The notes: generated from the letters alone by a model not told the origin. A DNA stretch of 32,000 bases from Prochlorococcus marinus subsp. pastoris str. CCMP1986 (GCF_000011465.1 NC_005072.1:1350001-1382000), one strand, 5' to 3'; shown: positions 1,804 through 28,251, counted from the first letter of the stretch. A program made the numbers and translations.

Positions 1804-2031
1804 TCAATCTTCTGCATCTTCAAATTCTCTTAGCAAACGAAAAGTTTTGGAAATAAAAGGAAAGATCCAAACAAACAAACCTACTACTGTTATCAAAGCG
1901 ACAAGAAAACCCAAAATTGCTAAGAATCCACCAGTTGCATCTCCTTCGTAAAAGCGATCAAGTCCAATTGGAGCACCAACTCCTAAAAGGAAGAGTCTTG
2001 TTAAAGTTTGTTTTTCTTTTTTTCTCAACAT
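1804..2031 (-). CDS. TM2-domain membrane protein (75 aa)
   Basis: The GAPIGLDRFYEGD motif followed by a second hydrophobic helix matches the TM2 domain pattern (G..G.h+FY.G). Its stop TGA abuts the next ATG. Confidence 0.75.
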   Translation of the reverse strand: MLRKKEKQTLTRLFLLGVGAPIGLDRFYEGDATGGFLAILGFLVALITVVGLFVWIFPFISKTFRLLREFEDAED

Positions 2032-2040
2032 AAATAATGT

Positions 2041-2086
2041 AAAAAGAGGGTTTTACCCCTCTAATATAGATTAACTGTCAATCAAT
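2041..2086 (-). repeat. diverged copy of the ATTGACAGTCGATCTAAAAT boundary element, plus hairpin and T-tract
   Basis: The minus strand reads ATTGATTGACAGTTAATCTATATT, then hairpin AGAGGGGTAAAACCCTCT, then TTTTT. It sits between the stop of 2091..2411 and the ATG at 2031. Confidence 0.7.
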
Positions 2087-2090
2087 TAAA

Positions 2091-2411
2091 TTATCCCATC
2101 GCTGCGACTTCATCAGCAAGTTGCTTATTTCTTAGAATAACTTCTTCATCATTAAAAACAGGAAGTACATTCCATTCCACTCCAAATTTTGCTCTCCAGA
2201 TACCAAAATGTTCAGCCATTTTGAGATGATTGTCAGCCTTGCAAGTCACAAAAACTTCTCCAGTTTGAGGAGCATGGACTCTACTTATCAATTCAAATCC
2301 ATCAAATTTATCCTTAGGTGCTCCAGAAGCAATATATTTTTCAAAGAGTTTGTAACCTTCTGATTGAGAAAGAGTATCTGGGATAATTCCATGAACGTGA
2401 TAGTAAGCCAT
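2091..2411 (-). CDS. small conserved protein, paralog of 5592..5930 (DUF3303-like, family name from memory)
   Basis: Track ORF 2091..2438 starts at TTG; the likely ATG is at 2411 (MAYYHVHG...). It aligns with 5592..5930: F.GF....R.HA......V...A......M.EHF..W..KF......PV..D.E. Confidence 0.8.
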   Translation of the reverse strand: MAYYHVHGIIPDTLSQSEGYKLFEKYIASGAPKDKFDGFELISRVHAPQTGEVFVTCKADNHLKMAEHFGIWRAKFGVEWNVLPVFNDEEVILRNKQLADEVAAMG

Positions 2412-2480
2412 AACTAAAATTGGATAGTGTAATTTCAATCTAAAAACGATAATTTAAAAAGAATTTAATTTATCTTTAAA

Positions 2481-2500
2481 TTTAGATCGACTGTCAATCG
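2481..2500 (-). repeat. boundary element core copy
   Basis: The minus strand reads CGATTGACAGTCGATCTAAA and contains the exact 16-mer TTGACAGTCGATCTAA. Confidence 0.85.
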
Positions 2501-2510
2501 TATTTAATTT

Positions 2511-2534
2511 AGCTGCAAGTAGTAAGCGTTTCAT
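2511..2534 (-). pseudogene. orphan signal-peptide leader (ATGAAACGCTTACTACTTGCAGCT) with no gene body
   Basis: A perfect 14-mer ATGAAACGCTTACT abuts the TAA of ORF 2535..3047. The reading frame runs straight into the boundary element and dies (MKRLLLAAKLNTIDSRSKF...). Confidence 0.6.
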
Positions 2535-3047
2535 TTAAAAATCATAAGTGACTTTATCGCATTTTTTCTTTCGATATATTTTCTGCATTTCTTTTTGTTC
2601 TGATAAATAATCTTCTTTTGCTTGTTTATTAATTGGATCATATTTGGCTTTAAATTCTTCTTTGATAGCTTGAGCATTTTGTCTTCTTTCTTCTGCCATG
2701 AAATCAAAATCACCATCACTATAATTTCCACTTTTTAAGGTAGTTTCAAACAAATAACATTCATTAGATAAAGCAATATCAAATTCTTTTAGTAAGAAAT
2801 ATTCAGTACAAAAGCTTGCTAATTTATAAGGACTATTATAAAAGTCTCTCCAATTTATATCTATTCCATAAACTTCAGCAATTTTTTCATTAGTAAATTC
2901 TTTGCTTTGTTTTACAAATAATATTTTTTGCTGATAATCATCTTTTGATTGATTTATTGCAAATTGAAGGTCTTTGCATAGTCTTACTTTATCGTTTCCA
3001 AAACCAACTATAAGTGGGAAAACAATAAATAAAACTAAGCGTTTCAT
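2535..3047 (-). CDS. secreted hypothetical protein (170 aa) with a leader variant
   Basis: Starts with ATGAAACGCTTAGT, one mismatch from the shared 14-mer. Signal peptide is MKRLVLFIVFPLIVGFG. Track ORF 2531..2731 is an out-of-frame shadow. Confidence 0.8.
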   Translation of the reverse strand: MKRLVLFIVFPLIVGFGNDKVRLCKDLQFAINQSKDDYQQKILFVKQSKEFTNEKIAEVYGIDINWRDFYNSPYKLASFCTEYFLLKEFDIALSNECYLFETTLKSGNYSDGDFDFMAEERRQNAQAIKEEFKAKYDPINKQAKEDYLSEQKEMQKIYRKKKCDKVTYDF

Positions 3048-3278
3048 TTAATCTTTGACTTTTTGGTCTAATAATTCTTTTAATTCCTTTGGGAAGTTTA
3101 AAAAAGAATCTTTTAAATTTTCATTCTTTTCTCCTATATGTAGTATCCACTCTCTAAATTCTTCTGCTATTGCATAACTGTCTTCATATTTTTCTAGGGT
3201 ATCCATAACAGAAATTCTGTTAGTAGCCCAACAAGTCGCAATATCAATCCTTTTTTTTTGTTTAGTATTTACTGCCAA
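3048..3278 (-). CDS. hypothetical small acidic protein (start uncertain)
   Basis: Track ORF with a TTG start that overlaps the end of the upstream micro-ORF by 10 nt. An internal ATG (MDTLEKYED...) is an alternative start. Confidence 0.55.
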   Translation of the reverse strand: MAVNTKQKKRIDIATCWATNRISVMDTLEKYEDSYAIAEEFREWILHIGEKNENLKDSFLNFPKELKELLDQKVKD

Positions 3279-3433
3279 AACTCATCTAATGCATCAAACA
3301 CTCTGTTGAGATAATCGTTTGCTCCTATACATTCCCATTTTCCCTTTTCACCAATCGCACATTTGTAGTGCAGTTCTCTCTTGAGCTGCATTAGTTTATT
3401 TGTCATCGCAACCTTGTCTAGTCTTCCGTTCAT
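3269..3433 (-). CDS. hypothetical 54-aa protein, not in the ORF track
   Basis: Hand translation gives MNGRLDKVAMTNKLMQLKRELHYKCAIGEKGKWECIGANDYLNRVFDALDEFWQ*. Its ATG overlaps the TGA of the upstream ORF (ATGA). Confidence 0.5.
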   Translation of the reverse strand: MNGRLDKVAMTNKLMQLKRELHYKCAIGEKGKWECIGANDYLNRVFDALDEFWQ

Positions 3434-3606
3434 AGTAAGTCTTCCGCTTCCGTCAATATTTGATTCTTTAAAAAAACAAGCGCGTCTAGTTTTTCTTCTT
3501 TTTCTTCATAATTTTCAAATTTCATTTCTGCAATTTCAACAATTGCTTTATTTATATTTTTAAGCCGTTTCTTAATAACTCTTTTTGGGGTTTTGGTTGA
3601 TTCCAT
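3430..3606 (-). CDS. hypothetical lysine-rich small protein
   Basis: Track ORF 3430..3663 starts at GTG; the first ATG is at 3606 (MESTKTPKRVIKK...). Its stop is coupled to the next ORF through an ATGA overlap. Confidence 0.5.
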   Translation of the reverse strand: MESTKTPKRVIKKRLKNINKAIVEIAEMKFENYEEKEEKLDALVFLKNQILTEAEDLL

Positions 3607-3731
3607 CGGAATTACTTTTTTCTTTATATTCGCTTTCTTTTCTTCAAAATGCGAGCCCCACACTTTAAATTCTGGTTAAATTTTCTACATAATGTCTTTA
3701 AGAATATAGTTTCTGCTCTTTTAATTTTAAT

Positions 3732-3764
3732 TTAATCAATAGATTTAAGTGGTGAGCTTTTCAT
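3732..3764 (-). pseudogene. degenerate orphan leader (ATGAAAAGCTCACCACTT...)
   Basis: Its ATG abuts the TAA of ORF 3765..3932, giving the same stop|ATGAAA architecture. It is only 10 codons long (MKSSPLKSID*). Confidence 0.35.
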
Positions 3765-3932
3765 TTAAAAGGTAATATTTTCTTCTTCAAGTTTTTTCTT
3801 TAGTTCTAGTGGCATATGAGCAATATCTTTTTTAATTGCATCTAAAGCATCATTATACTTTTCAGGATCAGATAAAAGCGTTTTTATCAAGTTATATTGA
3901 CTTTCTATTTCCTGAGAGGAAAATTTACTCAT
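3765..3932 (-). CDS. hypothetical 55-aa protein, not in the ORF track
   Basis: Hand translation gives MSKFSSQEIESQYNLIKTLLSDPEKYNDALDAIKKDIAHMPLELKKKLEEENITF*. It lies 25 nt downstream of a boundary-element copy. Confidence 0.5.
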   Translation of the reverse strand: MSKFSSQEIESQYNLIKTLLSDPEKYNDALDAIKKDIAHMPLELKKKLEEENITF

Positions 3933-3956
3933 TTTTAAAAACTTATTACTTTTTTT

Positions 3957-3978
3957 ATTTTAGATTGACTGTCAATTT
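3957..3978 (-). repeat. boundary element core copy
   Basis: The minus strand reads AAATTGACAGTCAATCTAAAAT, one mismatch from the consensus core. Confidence 0.8.
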
Positions 3979-4029
3979 AATCTGTCTTTAAATATCAACT
4001 CCTAAAATGAATTTAATTTTTAAATTAAT

Positions 4030-4287
4030 TTGGTTTACTTTAAGAAAGAGTTTATTAAATCCCTTAAATTAAAAGGCTCTATATTTTTAATTGTGGTAAT
4101 TATTGGATTTATTTACTCAAGTCCAAAATCAAGGGTAATTATTGCAAATTCTTTGACTTCTTCCGCTAAATTTTTAAACGAAACTGTAGAAACAACAAAT
4201 AAGGATATTTGGTTTTCTGAACCTGATTTCATTTTTAGTATTAGGTTAAAATTACGAGAATTATTGAGAGGAACTCAAAGAGGTTGA
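4030..4287 (+). CDS. doubtful ORF (85 aa, TTG start) with one TM segment
   Basis: It is the only long frame in this interval. It shows weak similarity (SPKSRVIIANSL..FL vs KPISRIYIADYL..FL) to 11905..12117. It runs against the local minus-strand gene direction, and its 3' end overlaps a minus-oriented boundary element. Confidence 0.3.
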   Translation: MVYFKKEFIKSLKLKGSIFLIVVIIGFIYSSPKSRVIIANSLTSSAKFLNETVETTNKDIWFSEPDFIFSIRLKLRELLRGTQRG

Positions 4288-4288
4288 G

Positions 4289-4328
4289 AAGGAGCTAATT
4301 ACCCCTTATTTTAGATCGACTGTCAATC
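4289..4328 (-). repeat. boundary element with hairpin
   Basis: The minus strand reads GATTGACAGTCGATCTAAAATAAGGGGTAATTAGCTCCTT. It starts 3 nt after the stop of micro-ORF 4331..4444. Confidence 0.85.
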
Positions 4329-4330
4329 TA

Positions 4331-4444
4331 TTAATAATTAATTAATTTTTTATTTTCATCTGTTTTATTTACTTTTAACCCAATAAACAATACCCATATA
4401 ACTGCAAAAACTATTGGCAAGAAAACGATAGCAAGCCTCATCAT
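4331..4444 (-). CDS. hypothetical 37-aa membrane micro-protein, not in the ORF track
   Basis: Hand translation gives MMRLAIVFLPIVFAVIWVLFIGLKVNKTDENKKLINY*, with a single hydrophobic helix. Confidence 0.4.
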   Translation of the reverse strand: MMRLAIVFLPIVFAVIWVLFIGLKVNKTDENKKLINY

Positions 4445-4550
4445 TTTTTAATCCTATTATTTGCTAAAAATAATACCGTTTAAATAAATAATTAAAACTA
4501 GGTACTTTACCTATTTCTGGATGACTTCCTATTAGGGAGAGAAGCAAAAA

Positions 4551-4610
4551 CCACCAATCACTTTCCTAAATAGGAACTTTGATGGATAGTAAATTTATAC
4601 CCAAAAAGTT
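4551..4610 (+). repeat. orphan 5' module (leader plus first codons) of the 16747..17064 gene family
   Basis: About 92% identical over ~60 nt to 7073..7134: CCACCAATCACTTTCCTAAATAGGAACTTTGATGGATAGTAAATTTATACCCAAAAAGTT. It includes the family start ATGGATA (4582). No gene body follows, and the cupin gene starts 70 nt later. Confidence 0.6.
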
Positions 4611-4681
4611 AAATTTAGTACTGACAAATATTTTAAAAATTAATAATATAAGCCTAAATAATTTTCTAGGAATTCAAATTG

Positions 4682-5110
4682 ATGATTAAAAATTTATTCA
4701 TAGCAATAGCCTTTGCTTTAATGCTCATTAACCCAAGTATTTCTATAGCTGCAGAATCTCCTGTAGATGTACAAGAAATCTTTGTAGGTTCTGAAACTAT
4801 GGATGGTGATTCTCTTAAATATCCAAAAGGAAAAGCAGAAATAAGATTACAAAGAGTCGAGTTAGCTGAGGGAGGGGTAGTCCCACTCCACTCTCATCCA
4901 ATTCCATTATTAGGTAATGTTGAGCAAGGTACGATTGTTGTCAAAAGACAAGGAATGGAAGATCTTACCTATACAGCAGGGGATACTTTTATAGTTGGTC
5001 CAAAGACACCAAAACATACAATGGGTAATGCAAAAACTGATAACGCAGTAGTTTGGTTCGCAGCAATAGGTGCAAAAGATGTTCCAATACTAATTCCCGC
5101 AGAAGGATAA
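4682..5110 (+). CDS. secreted cupin-domain protein
   Basis: Signal peptide is MIKNLFIAIAFALMLINPSISIAA. GGVVPLHSHP...G....GD matches the cupin_2 metal-binding motifs. The track ORF starts one codon earlier, at TTG 4679. Confidence 0.85.
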   Translation: MIKNLFIAIAFALMLINPSISIAAESPVDVQEIFVGSETMDGDSLKYPKGKAEIRLQRVELAEGGVVPLHSHPIPLLGNVEQGTIVVKRQGMEDLTYTAGDTFIVGPKTPKHTMGNAKTDNAVVWFAAIGAKDVPILIPAEG

Positions 5111-5133
5111 TTTCAACTTTAAATCAATTATTT

Positions 5134-5181
5134 TTGATTGATAGTCAAACTATAATGAGGAGCAATTAGCTCCTTTTTTTT
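5134..5181 (+). repeat. diverged boundary element with a perfect hairpin and T8 directly before an ATG
   Basis: Sequence is TTGATTGATAGTCAAACTATAATGA, then GGAGC-AATTA-GCTCC, then TTTTTTTT, then the ATG at 5182. Confidence 0.75.
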
Positions 5182-5490
5182 ATGACTGCTCAAAATTTTA
5201 TGAATGTTGTTCGATTTAAATTAAAGTCAGATTGTGTAGATAAGTATTTTGAAGTAATAGATAAAACAAGTTTTGAGGGGATGACTCAAAGATATATCGC
5301 TAAAACTGGAGTTTATGATTACTGTTTTGTTGGGATCTGGAAAAGTGTAGAAGCTATTGCAGCTCAAAGACCAGCTATGATTGCTCACCTTGATGAGGTT
5401 AGAGGATTTATGGAAGAGTTGTCTCCTGAACTTGGAGTTACTGATCCTGTTTCAGGAAATATTGTTTCTAAAGTTGGTTATCATGATTAA
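5182..5490 (+). CDS. hypothetical 102-aa protein, possibly ABM/Dabb-like ferredoxin fold
   Basis: Track ORF with an ATG start. The fold guess rests only on size and the pattern V.F.LK...........G...........W.S.EA. Confidence 0.75.
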   Translation: MTAQNFMNVVRFKLKSDCVDKYFEVIDKTSFEGMTQRYIAKTGVYDYCFVGIWKSVEAIAAQRPAMIAHLDEVRGFMEELSPELGVTDPVSGNIVSKVGYHD

Positions 5491-5506
5491 TAGTCGATTT
5501 TAAAAG
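5486..5506 (+). repeat. degenerate boundary element copy
   Basis: GATTAATAGTCGATTTTAAAAG compared with GATTGACAGTCGATCTAAAAT. It overlaps the stop codon of 5182..5490. Confidence 0.45.
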
Positions 5507-5591
5507 TTCCATAGTCCAAGTATTCAATTCAAGATCCTTAACTCAATTTTAAATAACATATCCTAGAAATAATTTTAGATTTATTAATTAA

Positions 5592-5930
5592 ATGAATACT
5601 TATTTTGTAACTGCAACTTTTAAAAATGTTGCTCTCATGGGTGCAGCTTATGACCTGTTTTTAAAGGTTATTGAAGACGGAACTTTGAATGATGAGTTTG
5701 AAGGATTTAAAGTTATGGGAAGATATCATGCCTCTTACTCAAATAATGTATATATTATTGTCCAAGCTTCAACAGGTATAAAAATGACAGAACACTTCGC
5801 TCCTTGGAAGGTCAAGTTTGATATAGATTTTGATATCAAGCCAGTTATGACTGACGATGAAAAAGTTGCTGAGCATAAGCTTGTTGGTTCATTAATGGCA
5901 GCAGAAAAGAAAATGGGATTTTCAGGGTAA
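5592..5930 (+). CDS. small conserved protein, paralog of 2091..2411 (DUF3303-like, family name from memory)
   Basis: Track ORF. It aligns along its whole length with the minus-strand ORF 2091..2411. Confidence 0.85.
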   Translation: MNTYFVTATFKNVALMGAAYDLFLKVIEDGTLNDEFEGFKVMGRYHASYSNNVYIIVQASTGIKMTEHFAPWKVKFDIDFDIKPVMTDDEKVAEHKLVGSLMAAEKKMGFSG

Positions 5931-6006
5931 TTATTTTTTAGAGATTTAGATTATGAATATATAATCCTATCTTGAAAGAGACTTGGGAAATAGCATGCAG
6001 AAAAGA

Positions 6007-6975
6007 ATGAAACGCTTACTACTTCCACTACTAGCTGCTCTCGCTATAAATTCTCAACCTGTTCTTACGAATGAAGATAGAGCTAACTTTTCAGAGGCTG
6101 AAATAATTAAAGTAAATAATAAAAATATAGAAGTAATTAAATTTAAAGTGCCTGATAAGAAGTTTCCAGATAGAAATGATGTTTTAGCTCAAATTCATTT
6201 TCCAAAATATTACAAGAATAAAAAATTATCCCTAATTATTCACCAACATGGAAGTAATAGAGATGGTTTAAGGTTCGAGAAATGGGGAGGTAGAACAGAC
6301 GAATGGGGGAGAAGGTTAGTAGAAAAAGCTTTAGAAAGAGGTTATGCGGTAGCTTTGCTTGATTCTTTTTATAAAAGAAAGTTAAAACCTTCAGATAAAG
6401 GAAAGTTTCCAAACGGTATTTTGATTAGTGAAAAACTTAACTCGATACTATCTAAGGATGAAAGATTTGATAAATCAAAAATTTTTTACTCTGGTTTTAG
6501 TTATGGTGCAAGTCAAGTATTGAAGCTTCAAGACAAAAGGGCAAACAGCGATTTATTTAAAGCAGCAGTGGCAGCAGAACCTGGATGTAACAAAGTTTCT
6601 TTTCCATTCAAATCTAATATAAAAACTTTAATAATTAAAGGTGAGGACAGCCATTATAACCCCATCGCATGCGAATATTATTATAATCTTGTTAAAGAAA
6701 CGGGAAATCAAATTGAATATGTATCTATACCGAAAGTAAATCATTTCTTCAGCTTAAACGGATCAATTGGAAAAGGAATAGCAGTTAATGGATGCTCAGA
6801 AAATATAGTAATACAATATCCAGATCGGACATTCAAACTTGCAGATGGAACATCAATCAATAAAGAAGAAGCTCAAAGAAGGTGTTTAACAAAGGAGTCG
6901 GGTGAAGGTACGACAAGAGAGAAATTGGATGAAGCAATAAATATATCGCTTAATTATTTTGATAAGTACAAATAA
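6007..6975 (+). CDS. secreted alpha/beta hydrolase (dienelactone-hydrolase/esterase-like) with the shared leader
   Basis: The ATGAAACGCTTACT start at 6007 gives MKRLLLPLLAALA; the track ORF begins earlier, at TTG 5983. It has a nucleophile elbow GFSYG (GxSxG) and an HQHGS oxyanion-type motif. Confidence 0.85.
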   Translation: MKRLLLPLLAALAINSQPVLTNEDRANFSEAEIIKVNNKNIEVIKFKVPDKKFPDRNDVLAQIHFPKYYKNKKLSLIIHQHGSNRDGLRFEKWGGRTDEWGRRLVEKALERGYAVALLDSFYKRKLKPSDKGKFPNGILISEKLNSILSKDERFDKSKIFYSGFSYGASQVLKLQDKRANSDLFKAAVAAEPGCNKVSFPFKSNIKTLIIKGEDSHYNPIACEYYYNLVKETGNQIEYVSIPKVNHFFSLNGSIGKGIAVNGCSENIVIQYPDRTFKLADGTSINKEEAQRRCLTKESGEGTTREKLDEAINISLNYFDKYK

Positions 6976-7734: not shown

Positions 7735-9819
7735 ATGAAAAGAAAACTCTTTTCTGCGATATTAACAGGCACGATGCTAGTAGCTCCTGCCAGTACTCTT
7801 GCAGAAACAAAACGTATTGGTGAGACCAGAGCTCTAATTCCTGAAGCAGGTCTTGCTTTGAACCCAGTCTTAGATGGTGGTAACGGAAACGTTGACTTCC
7901 CATTTGGAAACTTTAAAGCACTCGCTACTGTTGGTGAAGTAGGAGACAACGGACTTGCACTGACTGGATATCCAGATGGACAGGCAGCATATCTGCTTGA
8001 TAACGATACTATTCGAGTTGTTTATCAGTCCGAATCTTATGCGACCATGGGTAAAGCACCAGTCCCTGAGACTTATAACTGGGAAATGAAAAATGGTGTA
8101 ACTTTCTCTGGTTCTCACATTCACACGATTGATTATGATCGTGCAAAATTTGCTAAATTCATGAAAAATGGTTCTTCTGCAGAAGGAATGGTCAAGGATT
8201 CTGGTAAATTATTCAACACAATCTACAACGTATTTGGTGATGAAGTAACGAAGGAGAATTTAGTCTGGGGTAACCAAGCACTTCCCAGTCAACGCGTTGT
8301 TCCTTTCCTAGATAAATACAAACTTTCTGAAGCCGACTTCTTCCTACAGTCCTTTTGTGGTGCATGGTATGAACAAGCAAATAAATATGGTAATGGTATA
8401 GGGCTTGAGGATGATGTATGGCTTACTGCTGAAGAGTGGGAAATCGGTCGTATGTTCACTGGCTCTAAGAAGACTGGTAGAACAGAATCTGATAAAACGA
8501 TGGGTCTTGCATCAATAGCTGTTGATGTTAAGAACGAAGTTGCCTACACTGCACCTGCTTTAGGTCAGACTGGTTATGAAAAACTAATGCCAATCAACCC
8601 TCAACACAAAGACTATGTTGTTATCGTTGGTGCTGGTTATAATCACAATCAAGAACCTGCTCCTCTTAAGGTTTATGTCGGCATGAAGGATCGTCTTCCT
8701 GATGGTTCTGAGATTGATTACTCTACTGCTAATGAGCGCGATGCCTTCCTTGGACGAAATGGCATGCTCTACGGTCGCATCTACGGATTTGCAATGCCTA
8801 CCAAATCTTATGCTTCACTAGGTCTTGAAGCGAACCCTGCCGCAAAGATGATGGATGAGTATCTTCAGAATGCTGATGCACCTAACTCCTTTGAGGGTCG
8901 TTTCTATCCTACTTCCTATCAGTGGGGTGGCTGGGATAATCCAGTCTCAGTAAACAATACTGAGATGATGTTGTGGGAGCAAGCAGGTGAACAACCTGAG
9001 GGTTACACCTTCTTCAACGGAGATTCAAAAGCAGAACATCCTGCAGTAGATCCTGATATCAACCGTACTCGTTATGTTCAGAACATGACTAACAAAGGTG
9101 GGATTCTTGGTTTCGATTTTGGTTTCATTGGAGCCACTCTAGACGCTGCTGATGGCGATCTACCTGAATTCCTTCCTGCTACTGGTATTCGTGTTGTTCC
9201 TGCCATTGATGGTGCTCTTACTCTCAAGACTGGTGGTGAAGGTGTTGTGAAGGATGGCTCTGCCGCAATTCACGTTGAGAAAAATAAGGCAGCAATGGTT
9301 TCTCCAGATGGCCTTTATTGGACTAAACACGCTGATGGTTCTTACCTTATCGTTGATGAGGATTCTGGAAACGACTTTGGAGAACGTAAGTATGTCCTAC
9401 CCATCAAAGAGTCAGATATGACTCTTAGTGAACCGAACACTGGCTACCTATTAGGTCTTGCTGGTGGTAAGCACTCCTCACGTTATGAAGCAGGTGCATC
9501 TGCTCTTGGTGGTGCATTTTCCAAAGCAACTACTTCTGAGTTCTCTGGTTCTTGGAACGTAACTGCTCTGACAACTAAGAAGTCAAATGGTTTATTCGGA
9601 AGCAAATTCTACTCTATGGATGAACTTGCAGGAACTGGTGAACAAGAGATCATTCAGGGTATTGACACTGATGATCAACTCTTTATCGGTGTTGTTCAAG
9701 CCCGTGGTGAGTCAGGTGGTGCAGTTGCTGAAGAAGGTGGTGATGCTGGTGGACAAGTCTTCCAATTCACTTTTAACTTGCCTGAAAAATCAGAGGGAGA
9801 GAATATTGCTCAGTTCTGA
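7735..9819 (+). CDS. secreted PhoX/DUF839-like beta-propeller protein (putative phosphatase), 694 aa
   Basis: Signal peptide is MKRKLFSAILTGTMLVAPASTLA. Three motifs resemble PhoX family landmarks (recalled, not searched): GYPDGQAAY, SFCGAW...DDVWLTAEEWE and SPDG....DGSYLIVDEDSG. The gene is clearly richer in G+C than its neighbours. Four overlapping track ORFs are shadows. Confidence 0.9.
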   Translation: MKRKLFSAILTGTMLVAPASTLAETKRIGETRALIPEAGLALNPVLDGGNGNVDFPFGNFKALATVGEVGDNGLALTGYPDGQAAYLLDNDTIRVVYQSESYATMGKAPVPETYNWEMKNGVTFSGSHIHTIDYDRAKFAKFMKNGSSAEGMVKDSGKLFNTIYNVFGDEVTKENLVWGNQALPSQRVVPFLDKYKLSEADFFLQSFCGAWYEQANKYGNGIGLEDDVWLTAEEWEIGRMFTGSKKTGRTESDKTMGLASIAVDVKNEVAYTAPALGQTGYEKLMPINPQHKDYVVIVGAGYNHNQEPAPLKVYVGMKDRLPDGSEIDYSTANERDAFLGRNGMLYGRIYGFAMPTKSYASLGLEANPAAKMMDEYLQNADAPNSFEGRFYPTSYQWGGWDNPVSVNNTEMMLWEQAGEQPEGYTFFNGDSKAEHPAVDPDINRTRYVQNMTNKGGILGFDFGFIGATLDAADGDLPEFLPATGIRVVPAIDGALTLKTGGEGVVKDGSAAIHVEKNKAAMVSPDGLYWTKHADGSYLIVDEDSGNDFGERKYVLPIKESDMTLSEPNTGYLLGLAGGKHSSRYEAGASALGGAFSKATTSEFSGSWNVTALTTKKSNGLFGSKFYSMDELAGTGEQEIIQGIDTDDQLFIGVVQARGESGGAVAEEGGDAGGQVFQFTFNLPEKSEGENIAQF

Positions 9820-9862: not shown

Positions 9863-9903
9863 ACCTATAAACTCATTAATTTAGTGAGTTTATAGGTTTT
9901 TTA
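9863..9903 (+). terminator. rho-independent terminator of the 694-aa gene
   Basis: 13-bp stem ACCTATAAACTCA (9863-9875) / TGAGTTTATAGGT (9885-9897), followed by a T-run. Confidence 0.85.
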
Positions 9904-10009
9904 TATTTCAAACCTAAGTTTTTATATCTTTGCAATCTCATAAATGGTTAATAAGCTGTTCGTATATGAGGATATGATTATTAGGAAAATAATCCAAGTA
10001 ACAGTCGAT

Positions 10010-10168
10010 TTACTGTAATGGATAATTTAAATAAGCATATTTGTACATTTTCCTATAATCATCATGCAATCTTTCAGTTGCTAACTTTCTATTTTCCATT
10101 CCATCTCTAATCAAATCCATTTCATGGAAGTTTTGATTTAGGATTGTGAAAGGAGTAATGAGTTTCAT
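10010..10168 (-). CDS. 52-aa micro-protein, family member A, not in the ORF track
   Basis: Hand translation gives MKLITPFTILNQNFHEMDLIRDGMENRKLATERLHDDYRKMYKYAYLNYPLQ*. A GGAGG lies 4 nt upstream of the ATG. The N-terminus is homologous to the 14193..14333 product (P[FY]TI[LI]...F....D[IL]..G). Confidence 0.5.
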   Translation of the reverse strand: MKLITPFTILNQNFHEMDLIRDGMENRKLATERLHDDYRKMYKYAYLNYPLQ

Positions 10169-10283
10169 AAAACCTCCTGTATCTACACCTTTATTGTCCT
10201 CCTATTGTTATTAAATTAATAGAGCGGTTTGAGGAACAATTAGGTACGGGAAGAGGACTAAATTTTCGACTAGATTGTTAAAT
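10169..10283 (-). promoter_or_regulatory. conserved leader of micro-protein family, copy A
   Basis: The core at 10225..10283 is about 85% identical to 14403..14461 over its first ~45 nt; the distal ~15 nt aligns only with a gap. The proximal AGGTGTAG..AGGAGG block is also shared. The transcribed (minus) strand is pyrimidine-rich (GTCCTCTTCCCGTAC..GTTCCTCAAACCG). Confidence 0.45.
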
Positions 10284-10430
10284 TGATTGGAGTAGTTTCT
10301 GACGCTTCTACTGCTTTCTTTCATTTTGCTATTTTTCTCTATTGCCATGTTCCTTAATGTTGTTAGTTTGTGACATAAGGTAATCCAGAAACAATTAGTT
10401 TGTTTGATGAATAAGCCTGGAATTAATTTC

Positions 10431-10814
10431 ATGAGAAGCTTATTAGTAATGTTTCTAATAATAAGTTTTTCTTCAAAAGCATATTCAGCTCTACCAACCA
10501 CAATCATCAAAAGTTGCTACGACGGGGATACCTGCACAACCATTGATGGAGAGAAAATAAGACTTGCTTGTATTGATACGCCAGAATTAAAAGGTAAAAA
10601 AGCTGATCCTGTTGCGGCTAGAGAAGCAAGAGATTTTTTGAATAATTTAGTTACCAATGAAGAGGTTTCTATTAGGAGAATTACTAAAGATAAATATGAG
10701 AGAACAGTAGCTGAATTATTTAAAAATGATACTAACGTTCAAGAACTAATTGTTGATGATAGTTATGGGAAAATCTATGAAAGGTATGCATATCAATGTA
10801 ATTGGACTCAATAA
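10431..10814 (+). CDS. secreted thermonuclease (staphylococcal nuclease/SNase family)
   Basis: The pattern GDT....G..IRLACIDTPE......DP.....A..FL......V.......DKY.R.VAE........ELI.....G..YERY is the classical SNase pattern. Signal peptide MRSLLVMFLIISFSSKAYS runs from the ATG at 10431. Alternative starts are at 10404 and 10407. Confidence 0.85.
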   Translation: MRSLLVMFLIISFSSKAYSALPTTIIKSCYDGDTCTTIDGEKIRLACIDTPELKGKKADPVAAREARDFLNNLVTNEEVSIRRITKDKYERTVAELFKNDTNVQELIVDDSYGKIYERYAYQCNWTQ

Positions 10815-11025
10815 AGATTCTGCACCCTAGAAATCTTATCCCCATAGCCAAAAAGCTCTTCGAATATATGGTTTTAGCTGCCAACCCCAGAATCCATATC
10901 CAAAGACAAGGAATTGAGGGAAAAAACGAATTAACAGTAAAATAATTCCTCCTCTACCTCTCGCTTTCGTTGAAATCCTTGCTGCATCACTTGAATCAAA
11001 GTTTTATACAGTAGATACAGATTTG

Positions 11026-11424
11026 ATGACAGATGAAACAAAAATAAGATTTTATATTGAGAGTGAAACCCAAGTCCAAGACTCAATAGGAGGAAGAGAT
11101 ACGATTAATCTTTGGGTTAGATGTAACAATAGTTATCCACAAATCTTTTTTACAACTCCTACCTATAACGCTGACAATACTAGAGTTGGTGTTAGATGGG
11201 ATAAAGATAAAGCATCTTTCTACAACTGGAATAAGTCAACAGATAGCCAAGCTTTTTTTCATCCAAGACCTAAAGAATTTGCTCAAAAACTGAAAGAAAA
11301 AAGTTTTTTAACAGTTCAGTGGAGCCCATACAGCAGTTCAAGTCGTACGGCAAAGTTTGATTTAAATTCTCAAGAATTTAGAGAAGATATTTCAAAAGCC
11401 ATAGCAGATGGGTGTAATTTTTAA
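11026..11424 (+). CDS. hypothetical protein (132 aa)
   Basis: Track ORF with the ATG at 11026. Its TAA directly abuts an orphan ATGAAACGCTTACT leader. Confidence 0.7.
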   Translation: MTDETKIRFYIESETQVQDSIGGRDTINLWVRCNNSYPQIFFTTPTYNADNTRVGVRWDKDKASFYNWNKSTDSQAFFHPRPKEFAQKLKEKSFLTVQWSPYSSSSRTAKFDLNSQEFREDISKAIADGCNF

Positions 11425-11466
11425 ATGAAACGCTTACTACTTGCACCGCTAATAGTTAGTAATTGA
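11425..11466 (+). pseudogene. orphan signal-peptide leader (13 codons) running into a boundary element
   Basis: ATGAAACGCTTACTACTTGCACCGCTAATAGTTAGTAATTGA encodes MKRLLLAPLIVSN*. The stop lies inside the ATTGACAG core. Confidence 0.6.
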
Positions 11467-11503
11467 CAGTCGATCTAAAATAAGGGGCAATTAGCTTCTT
11501 TTT
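11461..11503 (+). repeat. boundary element with hairpin and T-tract directly before an ATG
   Basis: Sequence is AATTGACAGTCGATCTAAAATAA, then GGGGC-AATTA-GCTTC, then TTTTT, then the ATG at 11504. Confidence 0.85.
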
Positions 11504-11908
11504 ATGGAAAAATTTTCCCAGAATCTTCTTAGGCTTTCTCTTTCAATATTATTTTTAAGTTTTCCTATTGGTTTTTTATTCGCAGGGATTGAATATATAA
11601 ACACCAAAAAGTTTTTAACAACAAAATATGATGAATTAAATGAAAAGACAGAAGACTATATAGAGGATATGGAAGAAACTTATCCTGAAACTATAAAATA
11701 TTTTCCTTCAACTAAATTGGCAGATAAATCTCCTCTTGCAACATTACTTTTAACAAAATCAACTATGAAATTATTTCAAGTTTCCGAATATCTAAAATAT
11801 AAAAATTCAATTTTGGATACTACTGACGAGATATCAAAGACTGTTGATGCTTTTATAGAAGAATTAAGAATTGAATATCCCGAATTAAATAGAATACTTC
11901 CTAGATGA
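11504..11908 (+). CDS. hypothetical membrane-anchored protein (134 aa)
   Basis: Track ORF with an N-terminal hydrophobic segment. Its TGA overlaps the next ATG (ATGA). Confidence 0.7.
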   Translation: MEKFSQNLLRLSLSILFLSFPIGFLFAGIEYINTKKFLTTKYDELNEKTEDYIEDMEETYPETIKYFPSTKLADKSPLATLLLTKSTMKLFQVSEYLKYKNSILDTTDEISKTVDAFIEELRIEYPELNRILPR

Positions 11909-12117
11909 AACGCTTACTCTTAGCTGAGCTTTTGTTAGTTTTAATTACTCTAATTTTTGTTTCTCTAAAACCAATTTCTAGAATTTATATTGCTGATTAT
12001 TTGGAAAAGATATCCTTATTTTTATTTAGAACAGTAAGCGATGAAGATTTAAATAAGTGGTATGAGAAAAGAGATAAGTATGAATTACTTGAGGAATCAG
12101 GAGGAACTGCTTACTAA
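11905..12117 (+). CDS. small protein with the shared leader used as a TM anchor (70 aa)
   Basis: Starts with ATGAAACGCTTACT (MKRLLLAELLLVLITLIFV). Its stop TAA lies inside the next boundary element. Confidence 0.7.
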   Translation: MKRLLLAELLLVLITLIFVSLKPISRIYIADYLEKISLFLFRTVSDEDLNKWYEKRDKYELLEESGGTAY

Positions 12118-12136
12118 TTGACAGTCGATCTAAAAT
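12116..12136 (+). repeat. boundary element core copy
   Basis: AATTGACAGTCGATCTAAAAT is identical to 11461..11481. Confidence 0.85.
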
Positions 12137-12258
12137 ATTGGCAAATGGCGATTAAATATTAAGAAAATGCCAACTAGAGAAAAACTTGAAGGAAAACAAA
12201 TTAATAAACGGCTGCTTAAGCATTGCCTATGCATAGTTGTCGGTACTTTAGGTTAAAG

Positions 12259-12519
12259 CTAAGAATTTTTTTGTAATAATCTAATGCCAGATATTACAGA
12301 GATTATCGATGCAATACCAAGAAATATCGAATAAAAAGGCTGCAAATTAATAATGCCAAAATTACCTGTATGCCATTTGATCAACCAAAAAGCATCAACT
12401 CCTAATGGTTGAAGAAAACTATAGATAGTCCCAGATATAAGAGTAATTAATAAAGGTATTGAAGAAATTGCAGCTACTTTTCTGTGTATTTTTCTTTTAT
12501 TTGATTTCAAATTTTTCAT
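12259..12519 (-). CDS. small two-TM membrane protein (86 aa), possibly PepSY-TM-like
   Basis: Track ORF. Its ATG abuts the TAA of the upstream ORF (TAAATG). The family guess is weak. Confidence 0.65.
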   Translation of the reverse strand: MKNLKSNKRKIHRKVAAISSIPLLITLISGTIYSFLQPLGVDAFWLIKWHTGNFGIINLQPFYSIFLGIASIISVISGIRLLQKNS

Positions 12520-12849
12520 TTATTTTCTTTTTATTTTGACTATTGATAGCCATAATATTCCAAAGCTTGAAGATAAAATAAAAATCCATGCCAAGCTACT
12601 AGCTAAATTATTTCCTCTACTTGATCCCTTTTTATTAAGGAACTTATGTAATTCTTTTTCGTTTTTGCATGGCATCCATTTATCTTGGTTTTTATGTATT
12701 CCTTCGCAACCAAGTTCTAAAGATCTGTTTCTAGCATCCTCCTCAGAAAGAAATGTACCCCTCATATGTGCATTCGAATAACCACTTAAATTTAGAGATA
12801 AGAGAAATAAAAAAATCAAAAATTTAAAATTTCTAAGAACAATATGCAT
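12520..12849 (-). CDS. secreted/anchored Cys-containing protein
   Basis: The track ORF extends to 12891, but the ATG at 12849 gives a clean signal peptide, MHIVLRNFKFLIFLFLLSLNLSGYSNA. An alternative ATG is at 12888. It has a C-terminal TM helix. Confidence 0.65.
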   Translation of the reverse strand: MHIVLRNFKFLIFLFLLSLNLSGYSNAHMRGTFLSEEDARNRSLELGCEGIHKNQDKWMPCKNEKELHKFLNKKGSSRGNNLASSLAWIFILSSSFGILWLSIVKIKRK

Positions 12850-12871
12850 TATTTCAAATTTAGTATGTGTA

Positions 12872-13390
12872 TTAAGGAGAGATTTCATCAAATTTTTTTA
12901 TTTTGCCATTTTTGCTAAATGAAACTACATTGTATTCCTCATAATCATGAGAATGCGAGTCGTGAGAATTTATTTCCATTCCAGGCGAACCAAGAGGCAT
13001 TCCAGGGACTGCTATACCAGAGATAATTGGTTTTTCTTTAAAAAGTTTGGTGATAGATTCAATCGGCACATGTCCTTCAATTGCGTAGGTTCCTATTTTT
13101 GCAGAGTGGCAGGACCTTAAATTATTGGGAATTTTATATTGGTTTTTAATTCCCGAAACATCTTCAATAATGTTATCAACAACTTCTAATCCATTTTGGC
13201 GTAAATGATTTACCCATTTCTTACAACAACCGCACGATGCTGATCTATAAGAAACGACTTTAGGTATATCTATATTATCTTGAGTTTTAGCACTACTCTT
13301 TTCGTCATTAAATATATTTACTATGAGAAATCCAGAGAATACAAGAGTTTTTAGTAAATTCTTCTTAAAGAATGATTTCTTAAATGCCAT
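12872..13390 (-). CDS. DUF411 / CopG-like periplasmic metal-binding protein
   Basis: CGCCKKW...L...G..V........IK....IP..L.SCH.A.I..Y.IEGHVP...I..L......I.GIAVPGMP.GSPGME is the DUF411 signature. The ATG is at 13390; the track uses TTG 13408. Confidence 0.85.
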   Translation of the reverse strand: MAFKKSFFKKNLLKTLVFSGFLIVNIFNDEKSSAKTQDNIDIPKVVSYRSASCGCCKKWVNHLRQNGLEVVDNIIEDVSGIKNQYKIPNNLRSCHSAKIGTYAIEGHVPIESITKLFKEKPIISGIAVPGMPLGSPGMEINSHDSHSHDYEEYNVVSFSKNGKIKKFDEISP

Positions 13391-13450
13391 CTCAGTAAGG
13401 GATTCCAATTTTAAAACTATTTATAAGATAATTGAAATTTTATTTGATTG

Positions 13451-13903
13451 TTATTTAATCAATATCAAAGCACTCATAATTGCCATTAAAAGATTTTCAA
13501 TAAAACTAATAATTCCTAAAGGAGTTTTTGTATATCCGCCAACGCATGCACAATTTAATTTTAATTTATCTAAATAAACAGCTTTAAATACTGATGCCAT
13601 TCCAACAATTCCTAGAATTAAAGCAATTAAAATAATTGAAGAGGGTGGTGCAGAAAGTAAAAAGCATATGCCAATTAATAATTCGCAAAAAGGATAGATA
13701 TAAATCCAATTTTTAAATCGAGAAGTAATTAAATCATATTTTTTATAACTCAAACCAAAAGCTTCAATATCCATAAGCTTCAGCATCGCTAAAAGACATA
13801 TTGATATGCCCATAAAAACTTGGAAGCTTTTAATCAAAGTAATAGTTATAAGAAATGAAGTACCAAATACTGCAACCAATGGTGTAAAAGACTTTAATTG
13901 CAT
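13451..13903 (-). CDS. polytopic membrane protein, MauE/DoxX-like
   Basis: It has four to five hydrophobic helices and the LNCACVGG motif typical of MauE-type proteins (from memory). The ATG is at 13903; the track uses GTG 13930. Confidence 0.75.
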   Translation of the reverse strand: MQLKSFTPLVAVFGTSFLITITLIKSFQVFMGISICLLAMLKLMDIEAFGLSYKKYDLITSRFKNWIYIYPFCELLIGICFLLSAPPSSIILIALILGIVGMASVFKAVYLDKLKLNCACVGGYTKTPLGIISFIENLLMAIMSALILIK

Positions 13904-13907
13904 TTTT

Positions 13908-14150
13908 TTAACTTTTAAGAACAGAGTCACAAATACTAGATGGATTTGCCTGCTTAACTATTCTTAGCTTTTTGATAAGAGTGTCTCGATCTATTTGATG
14001 TTTTAAATATTTAATACAAAGATTCTTTTCCCTATTTAAATAAGCTTCTGTTCTTAAACTGCTAGCAATAGAGAATAAATTAATAGCAATAATCGCTAAT
14101 AAAATGCTCATTGGGTATTTTTTGATAAAAGGAAAAACTTTATTTTTCAT
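13908..14150 (-). CDS. hypothetical small anchored protein (80 aa)
   Basis: Track ORF with an N-terminal TM segment. It is the first gene of the minus-strand run 14150..12259. Confidence 0.6.
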   Translation of the reverse strand: MKNKVFPFIKKYPMSILLAIIAINLFSIASSLRTEAYLNREKNLCIKYLKHQIDRDTLIKKLRIVKQANPSSICDSVLKS

Positions 14151-14192
14151 TATTTATACTCTTTATTTTAATCTAAATAGCATAGCAATATT

Positions 14193-14333
14193 TTAAATTT
14201 CGCAGCCGCGATATGAAGGGTTCTCTTCACACTTAAGTTTCCAATAAATTACTTTAATATTTGCTCCATTATCTATATCGTTAATAGTCCTAAAGTATTT
14301 AGGAATGATTGTATAAGGAACTCTTTTATTCAT
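14193..14333 (-). CDS. 46-aa micro-protein, family member B, not in the ORF track
   Basis: Hand translation gives MNKRVPYTIIPKYFRTINDIDNGANIKVIYWKLKCEENPSYRGCEI*. GAAGGAGG lies 5 nt upstream of the ATG. It has the same leader as copy A. Confidence 0.5.
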   Translation of the reverse strand: MNKRVPYTIIPKYFRTINDIDNGANIKVIYWKLKCEENPSYRGCEI

Positions 14334-14461
14334 GATTTCCTCCTTCTTACTACACCTATGTTCTAACTACCAACGCATATCATTTATGAGTATCAAAATG
14401 TACGGTTTAAGGAAGAATAAAGTACGGGTAGAGGACCAAATTTTGAGACTGTTATTTAATT
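14334..14461 (-). promoter_or_regulatory. conserved leader of micro-protein family, copy B
   Basis: 14403..14461 aligns with 10225..10283. The proximal block CCTCCTTCTTACTACACCTAT aligns with CCTCCTGTATCTACACCTTT. Confidence 0.45.
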
Positions 14462-14583
14462 ACCAGTCCTAGGATTAATACATGGTTGTCATGAGGCAGT
14501 TGCAGGCATATAACTGAAGCCAACCATAAATTATTTGAGATAAAGTCGAGAGAGAGATATCACTCATCAATCAGTAAATAGAT

Positions 14584-14604
14584 GATTGACAGTGGATCTA
14601 AAAT
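14584..14604 (+). repeat. boundary element core copy
   Basis: GATTGACAGTGGATCTAAAAT has one mismatch from the consensus. Confidence 0.8.
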
Positions 14605-14789
14605 ATTTAAAAACAAATTCATTATCTTGTGTGAAAAATTATCTAATATCAGGTTTGGTTGATGACTACAGAATAAAGATAAATCTTTTCGCTATTTCTC
14701 CTAATCATGCAATAAAAGTGTTTCAGCAGAAGTATCCAGAAGCAACCGATATTTATGTGATACAAGATCTATTTAAAGGGAATAAATGA
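14586..14789 (+). CDS. doubtful ORF (67 aa); the annotated TTG start is the TTGACA of the repeat
   Basis: The frame is open from inside the boundary element, so the true start, if any, is downstream. No family recognised. Confidence 0.3.
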   Translation: MTVDLKYLKTNSLSCVKNYLISGLVDDYRIKINLFAISPNHAIKVFQQKYPEATDIYVIQDLFKGNK

Positions 14790-14811
14790 CTTAATAGAAC
14801 TTTGGGATTTA

Positions 14812-17064: not shown

Positions 17065-17125
17065 GTTTATTGACCTCCAACCTTTACTAATGATATAAAT
17101 ATTAGTACACTTGTACTAACTAATC

Positions 17126-17356
17126 ATGGAGGACTGGCAGGAATGGGAATACTTCGATTATCACGGAGAACTGAGAAGCAAACGCACAAAGATTTGCATT
17201 ACTTGCACTCACTTTCGTTACAGCACGACAGATCAATGTGTAACTATCTTGACCTGTCCCTTTCACCAGAAGCTTATTCCTCAAGGAGATCATTTAGTTA
17301 AGGGCTGTACTTACTGGAGGAAAGATAGTCGAATATTTGCTCCAGAAGCAGCTTAA
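17126..17356 (+). CDS. hypothetical Cys-rich 76-aa protein (possible metal-binding)
   Basis: Track ORF. It has CxxC (CITC) plus four further Cys and several His. Confidence 0.65.
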   Translation: MEDWQEWEYFDYHGELRSKRTKICITCTHFRYSTTDQCVTILTCPFHQKLIPQGDHLVKGCTYWRKDSRIFAPEAA

Positions 17357-27774: not shown

Positions 27775-28251
27775 TTAAGCAGTCCCACAGAAAGCGACTT
27801 CAGGAAATTTAAGCTTTGCTTCTTCCAATTTTTTCGTTTTACCTTCTTCTTGCCAGTAATTAATTACTTCAGTAGCTTTATTCAATATTTCAACTCTTTC
27901 ATTATCTGTAATCCAACTTTTATTCTCTAATTCGCTCTTTAATTTTTCCCATGCGTCATCTCTTGGCCAAAAATAGTAAGCAGTTAATGGACTTGAACCT
28001 CCTCCAACTATTTGATCTACTGCCAATGCGACATTATCAGGTAACCATAAGATTTTGATAATAAATCTACCCTCATCTGGTTTTGGAGTATAGCCTGTGG
28101 GAACTCCATCTTCATCAATTTTAGCAGCCGCTAAAACGGCGTTTGCTCCCATCATCCCTGCATTTGGTGAGGTTATTTTTGATTTTTGAGAAACATTTTT
28201 TTGTTCTTGCTGCTCCTTAGCATTCTCATTACCCTTATCTGATGAAGTCAT
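27775..28251 (-). CDS. 30S ribosomal protein PSRP-3 / Ycf65 homolog
   Basis: The segment [52 protein letters not shown]...[18 protein letters not shown] matches the conserved PSRP-3 core (recalled). Confidence 0.85.

Follow-up and report, generated by a model that had tools for sequence, protein, structure and literature searches.

Integrons carry orientation-locked imperfect palindromes, the attC sites, at the junctions of co-oriented, small, unrelated and exchangeable genes. In repressor-controlled promoters of the SOS/LexA type, which lack a -35 box, a palindromic operator abuts or overlaps the -10 box and is shared by many dispersed genes, which form a regulon. Correia elements (Neisseria), REP/BIME, ERIC and BOX are short intergenic repeats, present in large numbers, that can give rise to promoters, terminators and RNA-processing sites near genes; these repeats resemble miniature inverted-repeat transposable elements (MITEs), have terminal inverted repeats and target duplications, and occur in either orientation and at variable distances from genes. 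Finally, mobile promoters are near-identical promoter-bearing upstream sequences that precede non-homologous genes, both inside one genome and across genomes (Matus-Garcia et al. 2012; Nijveen et al. 2012, PMC3575422). Here, we describe a module of approximately 46 bp from a 32,000-nucleotide stretch of the genome of Prochlorococcus marinus subsp. pastoris str. CCMP1986 (MED4; NC_005072.1:1350001-1382000; the whole stretch is hereafter called the window). The module combines a palindromic core, a hexamer, a hairpin and a T-run. On balance, it is probably a portable, orientation-locked promoter and short leader, likely under operator control, that serves as the 5' head of flexible-gene cassettes of Prochlorococcus islands. 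Prochlorococcus is among the most abundant phototrophs of the ocean. Its ecological diversity lies largely in small cassettes of hypervariable islands, most cells are without the usual gene-transfer machinery (tycheposon preprint), and regulators are few (tycheposon preprint; Steglich et al. 2008).

The module shares the qualitative trait of mobile promoters in that 140 module-led open reading frames (ORFs) fall into 51 unrelated families and transcription start sites (TSSs) map to two copies. It is set apart from mobile promoters by its size of about 46 bp, its fusion to the start codon, its operator-like palindrome and its terminator-like hairpin, as well as by its presence in more than 100 Prochlorococcus genomes and some cyanophages, before at least 51 families and at cassette boundaries; no paper that connects mobile promoters with Prochlorococcus turned up in a literature search. 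Unlike integron attC sites, the element lacks R''/R' core sites, no IntI or attI was found among the island ORFs of the window, and exchange probably proceeds by homology rather than by site-specific recombination. The cassettes carry their own promoter at the 5' end, whereas integron cassettes are usually promoterless. Unlike Correia and other MITE-type repeats, the element has no terminal repeats or duplicated flank, and its orientation and start-codon spacing are fixed. To our knowledge, the palindrome has no relation to the sites of NtcA, Fur or PhoB; it is also unrelated to the LexA-box-like TAGTAC-N4-GTACTA and to the GntR site CGRE1.

An initial reading of the window by a model, made from its DNA sequence (hereafter, the original prediction), did not recognize the element as any named repeat family, and database and literature searches agree. 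A search of the whole window against Rfam gave no match at the gathering threshold. With the cutoff relaxed to E ≤ 1, region 1900-5700 likewise gave none, and the sole weak match in region 9900-14800 (IS009) lies away from the elements. Literature searches with the motif strings returned no relevant paper (a comparison made without Voigt et al. 2014), and nothing comparable was found in Steglich et al. 2008 and its supplements, the tycheposon preprint, a 2025 preprint on HLII recombination or a Red Sea mdRNA-seq paper; the CGRE1/PMM1637 paper (PMC6191309) describes a different motif. No prior description of the module was found. As judged from sequence, it appears to work like a mobile promoter and to be arranged like an integron cassette, and it lacks every attC feature tested.

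Nine cores were called in the window by a scan with the degenerate 15-mer GAYTGAYAGTCRAWC. Dinucleotide-preserving shuffles gave 0.3-0.6 matches and reached the observed count in 0 of 100 cases, and a scan with TTGACAGTCGATCTAA at up to three mismatches also returns these copies (mean of 0.33 in shuffles of the same kind). All nine lie before 15 kb, in the island half of the window; the core-genome half holds a single three-mismatch match (28011-28026), which is intragenic and at chance level. The nine positions, the four perfect 16-mers (2482, 4311, 11463 and 12118), the four hairpins (2045-2062, 4289-4307, 5157-5175 and 11482-11500) and, in three of the four hairpin copies, the T-run that finishes 0-10 nucleotides (nt) short of an ATG had all been given in the original prediction and were recovered by motif scans and inspection of the oriented flanks. 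Coordinates are those of the window (genome position = window + 1,350,000, verified on four gene starts and one operon span). Exact protein look-ups assign the window to MED4, and PMM gene numbers were inferred from CAE accession numbers and then checked against coordinates. The copies and associated genes are as follows.

2040..2083, minus strand: complete, transcribed copy ahead of PMM1408; core GATTGACAGTTAATC 2069-2083, TATATT 2063-2068, hairpin AGAGGG/CCCTCT 2045-2062, T-run 2040-2044, TSS 2055, ATG 2031
2479..2499 (core 2485-2499), minus strand: perfect-core copy with hexamer TAAATT and no hairpin; a remnant MKRLLLAA mini-ORF lies upstream
3957..3977 (core 3963-3977), minus strand: perfect-palindrome copy AATTGACAGTCAATC with TAAAAT and no hairpin; the ATG (3932) of an ORF of 55 amino acids (aa) lies 24 nt on
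4289..4328 (core 4314-4328), minus strand: perfect-core copy with TAAAAT and hairpin GGGGT-AATTA-GCTCC, without T-run or downstream gene; this copy is a truncated cassette head
5136..5181, plus strand: complete, transcribed copy ahead of PMM1413; core GATTGATAGTCAAAC 5136-5150, TATAAT 5151-5156, hairpin 5157-5175, T-run to 5181, TSS 5165, ATG 5182
5485..5505 (core 5485-5499), plus strand: degenerate remnant GATTAATAGTCGATT overlapping the stop codon of PMM1413; other genomes have a full element at this position, after the PMM1413 homologue
11461..11503 (core 11461-11475), plus strand: complete consensus copy ahead of PMM1419, with TAAAAT, hairpin GGGGC-AATTA-GCTTC, T5 and ATG 11504; preceded by the mini-ORF MKRLLLAPLIVSN
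12116..12136 (core 12116-12130), plus strand: perfect core and TAAAAT without hairpin, overlapping the stop codon of PMM1420; the only ORF behind it has 29 aa
14584..14604 (core 14584-14598), plus strand: one-mismatch core GATTGACAGTGGATC and TAAAAT without hairpin; a possible 52-aa ORF lies 26 nt on
1804-2031, minus strand: PMM1408
5182-5490, plus strand: PMM1413
7735-9819, plus strand: PMM1416
11504-11908, plus strand: PMM1419

Beyond MED4, the exact 20-mer ATTGACAGTCRATCTAAAAT was found in at least 120 stretches of a species-level genome collection, and among the matches listed every host is Prochlorococcus or an uncultured Synechococcaceae single-cell genome. The median G+C content of these loci (31%) suggests high-light-type genomes. 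Mismatch scans, made with shuffles to assess copy number, located the element only in the island half of the window and yielded 313 copies at up to four mismatches in the 877 kb of sequence fetched for the loci plus the 32-kb window, with a maximum of six copies in 8 kb; after mononucleotide shuffling of the loci alone, four matches were obtained, all with four mismatches. A common layout is observed in 130 distinct contexts: unrelated upstream sequence is followed by R-ATTGACAGTCGATC, TAAAAT, 1-3 nt, the hairpin, five to nine T and, after a further 0-3 nt, the ATG or GTG of a variable gene. The palindrome has the consensus RATTGACAGTCGATC and is followed by a TAnnnT hexamer. The hairpin is of one of two alternative types, AAGGGGC-AATTA-GCTCCTT (type A) or (G)GAGGG-ATAAAA-CCCTC(T) (type B), so that two unrelated stem sequences occupy the identical place. 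Upstream of the palindrome, information content is down to background within 3 nt, and in the other direction it remains high to about +43, which delimits a conserved unit of about 46 bp from palindrome position -1 through the end of the T-run. Searches with the hairpin of either type alone showed that the core, at up to four mismatches, precedes more than 90% of the matches; core, hexamer, hairpin and T-run therefore constitute one module. The original prediction had included the palindrome and hexamer in the unit but had treated the hairpin and T-tract as optional, whereas both belong to the conserved unit. A hairpin of -3 kcal/mol or lower together with a T-run is present in 100 of 168 near-consensus copies.

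The position of the module is fixed relative to the gene that follows it. Among the 168 copies with at most one mismatch, 117 are followed on the sense side by an ORF of at least 40 aa that starts 15-34 nt after the 20-mer, compared with nine on the antisense side, and the distance from element to start codon is tight (20-29 nt). Among these copies, orientation relative to start codons is not random. The 140 element-led ORFs encode small, mostly uncharacterised proteins (DUF3764 and others). Conservation of position extends to a copy without a hairpin: at least 10 other genomes retain the locus of copy 3963, and in each of them the distance to the same downstream 55-aa gene is 24 nt. The original prediction had tied each copy to the gene upstream, an assignment that is here corrected to the downstream gene; copies 3963(-) and 4314(-) have no convincing normal-sized co-oriented upstream gene. 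Between these two copies lies a plus-strand ORF of 85 aa (4030-4287), the length of which is kept in 10 genomes, but its ratio of synonymous to nonsynonymous codon differences (62:161) is not clearly that of a coding sequence, and it was not relied on as a real divergent gene. This stretch may be the remnant of an opposite-strand gene formerly headed by copy 4314. Because its status is undecided, the count of upstream contexts was redone with strict gene calls (ORFs of at least 100 aa): the upstream neighbor is co-oriented in 66 and divergent in nine of the 75 classifiable contexts, and five clearly divergent contexts retain both hairpin and gene.

Two copies coincide with mapped transcription starts. 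In the TSSAR tables of a published differential RNA sequencing (dRNA-seq) study, primary TSSs are listed at 1355165(+), "17nt upstream of PMM1413", and at 1352055(-), "24nt upstream of PMM1408", each in all four libraries (Read et al. 2017, PMC5607370). The fourth column of these tables, which was interpreted as read counts with a detection threshold of about 100, gives values of 970-1806 and 196-503, respectively. Both TSSs, 5165(+) and 2055(-) in the window, fall on nucleotide 2 of the loop in the hairpin, 9 and 8 nt past TATAAT and TATATT. A primary 5' end located 5-9 nt after TAnnnT, the criterion for sigma-70, is therefore present at two of the nine window copies (chance probability of about 2e-4, by our own estimate), and other TSSs in the window show the same +7/+8 spacing from a TAnnnT hexamer. 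Since transcription starts in the loop, the mRNA lacks the 5' arm of the hairpin, and transcripts from the two mapped starts have a 17- or 24-nt leader that is rich in pyrimidines and U. The hexamer was further compared among 66 copies that were located via the hairpin and differ from the seed 20-mer. T1 is conserved in 64, A2 in 66 and T6 in 65 of these, and positions 3-5 in only 50-52, with variants such as TACAAT, TAACAT and TAAACT. This combination of fixed T1, A2 and T6 with free positions 3-5 is the pattern of a -10 box and not that of an A-tract that pairs with the U-tract. No -35 hexamer was found 16-18 bp upstream of the -10 box, and sequence further upstream is at background information. 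The TTGACA within the palindrome was rejected as a -35 because it lies only 7 bp from the hexamer, and a 17-bp-spaced alternative -10 (GGCAAT or GGGATA) is incompatible with the mapped TSS. Promoters without a -35 box are reportedly the rule in Prochlorococcus. Of the originally predicted operator and -10 promoter, the promoter thus finds support in two primary TSSs and the TAnnnT pattern, and the operator in the palindrome as a sequence motif; the accompanying idea that the transcript starts in a 5' hairpin does not stand.

The hairpin and the palindrome differ in the way they vary. With the two hairpin types out of register in a MAFFT alignment, an arm-permutation test was used in place of RNAalifold-type covariation. 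Native arms have a mean stability of -4.11 kcal/mol, compared with -2.77 ± 0.16 when arms are permuted among copies, and the native value was reached in none of 300 permutations; when permutation was carried out by type, with pre-selection, it was reached in 17 of 300 (type A) and 0 of 300 (type B). Compensated stem variants (such as GGGGC/GCCCC and AGAGC/GCTCT) are present, so the compensatory change that had been named as a check is observed. In the palindrome, nearly all changes are one-sided: pair 3/9 shows 11 single changes and one double (non-complementary) change, and pair 5/7 shows 15 single and three double changes. Since the arms covary and the palindrome does not, the hairpin appears to be selected as a structure and the palindrome as a sequence, most likely one that a dimeric transcription factor binds. 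Counted from the TSS (+1), the palindrome covers about -28 to -14, a position that suggests a repressor.

Taken together, these features suggest a five-part promoter and leader. The 15-bp imperfect palindrome would be the site of a dimeric factor, and the bound protein would be expected to block RNA polymerase. It is followed by a putative sigma-70-type -10 box, TAnnnT, without a usable -35. A G-rich stretch of 7 nt between the -10 box and the start would double as the 5' arm of the hairpin, and transcription would begin in the hairpin loop, as mapped for two copies. The predicted leader is a 13-24-nt pyrimidine- and U-rich segment without a Shine-Dalgarno sequence that corresponds to the 3' arm and T-run; in most complete copies, the start codon would follow it within 0-3 nt. 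When transcription continues from the upstream gene, the intact hairpin and U-tract of the transcript have the shape of an intrinsic terminator and probably insulate each cassette. The original interpretation as a whole is supported in part.

The module also marks where cassettes are joined. In a BLAST comparison of the island with 120 loci, 89 of 163 internal block ends (55%) are no more than 15 nt away from an element, whereas their position would lead one to expect 3.4%, an enrichment that is inflated by an unknown degree, the loci having been selected for carrying the element. Blocks 2053-2487, 3763-4328, 5131-5498 and 11905-12136 recur in further genomes in different order and orientation, and block ends accumulate at 4320-4334 (copy 4314) and at copy 12116. 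Among 81 upstream-flank classes and 59 downstream-gene classes, 101 combinations are observed, with one gene found behind seven different flanks. The type of hairpin mostly tracks the downstream gene, which places the element in the cassette of that gene, and is occasionally swapped before the same gene. The module thus coincides with cassette boundaries. The proposal that it is the 3' recombination joint of the cassettes was right in that homology blocks break at the element; the element travels with the downstream gene, however, and is a 5' cassette head.

Complete modules are found in viral DNA as well. No match was obtained in 50,697 isolate phage genomes, where the weak matches included no cyanophage. 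In IMG/VR, only three contigs (L191, L202 and L121) hold true copies, and a loosened 15-mer scan gave 111 matches, which is about chance level by our own rough estimate. Contig L191 encodes uvsX, a DnaB-like helicase and mazG, and has three complete modules within positions 1-1100: one precedes a DUF3764-like gene, one a small ORF and one the uvsX region, and the sequence between modules includes a homologue of cupin PMM1412 of MED4 with its own promoter region. In L202 (400-600), phoH is followed by a module and a 41-aa gene that is also module-headed in host loci. A PHROG search of L121, an 85-kb unclassified viral contig, gave no match. Because the gene content of L191 and L202 is T4-like, element-headed cassettes occur in cyanomyoviruses: these fragments contain host-like island cassettes, each headed by a complete module. 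The same 46 bp heading many cassettes therefore marks exchange points, T4-like cyanophages included, and probably supplies homology for them; recombination would proceed through that homology.

Several observations weigh against a promoter and leader as described. In the four libraries of Read et al. 2017 (PMC5607370), no TSS is found near 2471, 3949, 4300, 11489, 12144 or 14612, and all four perfect-16-mer copies are among these six non-degenerate copies without a TSS. Mapped TSSs occur only at the two most diverged copies, which are also those with the best -10 boxes, and promoter activity of the consensus form is predicted from its conservation. None of the four libraries has a TSS at the degenerate remnant 5485..5505 either, and PMM1409 and PMM1414 use separate TSSs (2429 and 5578, respectively). 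Repression, the weaker TAAAAT hexamer and the detection threshold of about 100 fit the consensus copies without a TSS equally well. For the PMM1419 copy, silence may reflect the threshold rather than repression, since PMM1419 appears in the "top 50% expression" tables of the same study. The putative operator role is read from position and substitution pattern. Rockhopper operons join PMM1412-1413 and PMM1406-1409 (Read et al. 2017, PMC5607370), and termination at the hairpin would accordingly be partial at best, or masked by the internal promoter; with the TSS inside the hairpin, joins across these two copies are uninformative on termination. Sense and antisense hairpin stabilities are similar, and an RNA-level role of the hairpin is accordingly putative. 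The selection of the loci mentioned above counts on the same side.

An alternative that we regard as unlikely is that the element serves chiefly to terminate or attenuate transcription of the upstream gene, as an intrinsic and possibly bidirectional signal, with TAAAAT as the A-tract partner and the two TSSs incidental. The hairpin and T-run do have the form of an intrinsic terminator, a G+C-rich stem-loop with a U-tract directly after it; the hairpins at 5157-5175 and 2045-2062 match a consensus terminator scan, and the consensus module folds into a palindrome stem and an extended A-tract/stem/U-tract helix (z about -4). The arm covariation, the stop codons in all three frames of the type A consensus, and the 66 of 75 classifiable copies that follow a co-oriented gene, often 0-10 nt from its stop codon, also fit, as does the higher frequency of hairpins in tandem (77 of 116) than in divergent (19 of 46) contexts, counts in which copies are not independent. 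However, the A-tract model does not predict an invariant T1, A2 and T6 with free positions 3-5, and it leaves the invariant palindrome, the tight 20-29-nt distance to the start codon and the primary TSSs in the loop unexplained. Termination is not the primary role, because copies without a hairpin are also conserved, 24 nt ahead of a start codon, and the upstream neighbor is divergent in some cases, with hairpin and gene nevertheless kept. As a secondary role, the intercistronic terminator of the original prediction is plausible, given the arm covariation and the U-tract that follows. The promoter-derived mRNA lacks the 5' arm, so the simplest reason for conserved arm complementarity would be termination of read-through from the upstream gene, and the hairpin and T-run probably also insulate the cassette from upstream transcription.

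An equally improbable explanation is a site-specific recombination site similar to integron attC, acted on by a hypothetical recombinase that would insert and excise cassettes, and with promoter activity as a secondary feature. It would account for block ends at the element 16-fold above expectation, for the same gene behind up to seven upstream contexts, for the exchange of hairpin type before the same gene, for orientation-locked arrays of an imperfect palindrome and for modules in cyanophage contigs. The consensus GATTGACAGTCGATCTAAAATAAGGGGCAATTAGCTCCTTTTTTT, however, contains no RYYYAAC or GTTRRRY core on direct reading, the unit measures 46 bp against 57-141 bp for attC, and the 7-1-7 palindrome lacks the 6-8-bp spacer used by tyrosine recombinases. 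No integrase, transposase or recombinase was found among the island ORFs of the window, nor were attC features at its island cassettes. The element is fused to the downstream start codon, not to the 3' end of an ORF, and RecA-type recombination between 46-bp repeats would produce the same boundaries.

That the element is a selfish or decaying MITE/REP-like repeat with a chance -10-like hexamer and no selected function is very unlikely. Up to six copies per 8 kb, the gene-less truncated or degenerate copies at 4314, 5485 and 12116, and the lack of a published function in the literature searched are in keeping with such a repeat. It is contradicted by a 20-mer that is identical across at least 120 loci of different GTDB species-level genomes, by position-specific constraint that obeys the -10 rule, by compensatory change in the hairpin and by strict orientation and spacing relative to start codons; no terminal inverted repeats, target duplications or transposase partner were found, and information falls to background at both edges. 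Promoters of T7, T3 and SP6 have about 20 bp of invariant sequence followed by GG-rich initial bases, a layout that the module resembles. The idea that the module is the promoter of a T7-like single-subunit RNA polymerase encoded by phage, or some other phage-specific site that would explain island induction during infection, was nonetheless rejected despite this layout and the viral copies, as it is largely refuted by the isolate-phage and IMG/VR scans (no match among isolates and no cyanophage among weak matches; two of the three true-copy contigs T4-like, a group without a single-subunit polymerase, and the third, L121, unclassified and without a PHROG match) and by TSSs that were mapped in uninfected cultures 8-9 nt past TAnnnT and not at the GG.

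If the module is indeed a promoter and leader at the head of cassettes, a broader scenario can tentatively be drawn, although we consider it doubtful. In an integrase-less cassette system of a streamlined genome, the 46-bp head would provide promoter, translation start, insulation and homology for swapping by RecA or another factor, with T4-like cyanophages as vectors, and the palindrome would place the cassettes under one repressor as an "island regulon" that is quiet in standard culture and released by a signal such as infection or stress. The 46-bp head offers a testable answer to how newly acquired genes could be expressed immediately, and it indicates where cassettes are exchanged, cyanophages included. 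It further predicts a regulon not noticed before and provides a defined DNA bait with which to look for its regulator; in an organism that is genetically recalcitrant, it would also serve as a compact native promoter and leader.

Several additional features of the island were observed. Many copies are immediately preceded by a remnant mini-ORF, ATGAAACGCTTACTACTTGCACCGCTA... (MKRLLLAPL...), as at 11425-11463(+) and 2500-2537(-) and in about 14 of 130 contexts. Many island genes begin with MKRLL (1144-1515, 1516-1803, 2535-3047 and 11905-12117), and the motif occurs at an internal ATG or as MRRFLL in 5983-6975 and 15186-16526. Homology-block ends also accumulate at 11900-11905, and recombination may have a second hot spot in the conserved 5' end that encodes the signal peptide. 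The TSSs at 2429(-) and 5578(+) are adjoined by TTTTAGATT, which matches the reverse complement of the right end of the element (ATTTTAGATCGA) and may represent decayed inverted copies or an AT-rich chance match. A palindrome unrelated to the element, TAGTACACTTGTACTA at 17103-17118(+), lies 2 nt before TSS 17120 of PMM1427 (17126-17356) and resembles the cyanobacterial LexA box. At two loci of the collection (L006 at about 3905 and L109 at about 3989), CTCCTCACCC comes after a type A-like hairpin that lacks the palindrome. The Yfr1/Yfr10 motif ACUCCUCACAC is ultraconserved (Steglich et al. 2008); CTCCTCACCC resembles it, and these two sites may be a small RNA gene.

Between PMM1410 and PMM1412 there may be unannotated genes: ORFs 3048-3278, 3269-3433 and 3430-3663 are listed without a gene name by Read et al. 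2017, and the last of these (minus strand, 77 aa) has "orphan" primary TSSs just upstream at 3716(-) and inside at 3625(-). Finally, two very similar promoter/leader regions (..ATAAAGGTGTAG..AGGAGG..ATG) are located at 10185(-) and 14352(-), with ORFs of 52 aa (10010-10168) and 46 aa (14193-14333) behind them. The TSS at 10185 is the strongest of the region, with 21,127 in the fourth column (taken as read counts), and is of the orphan class (Read et al. 2017, PMC5607370).

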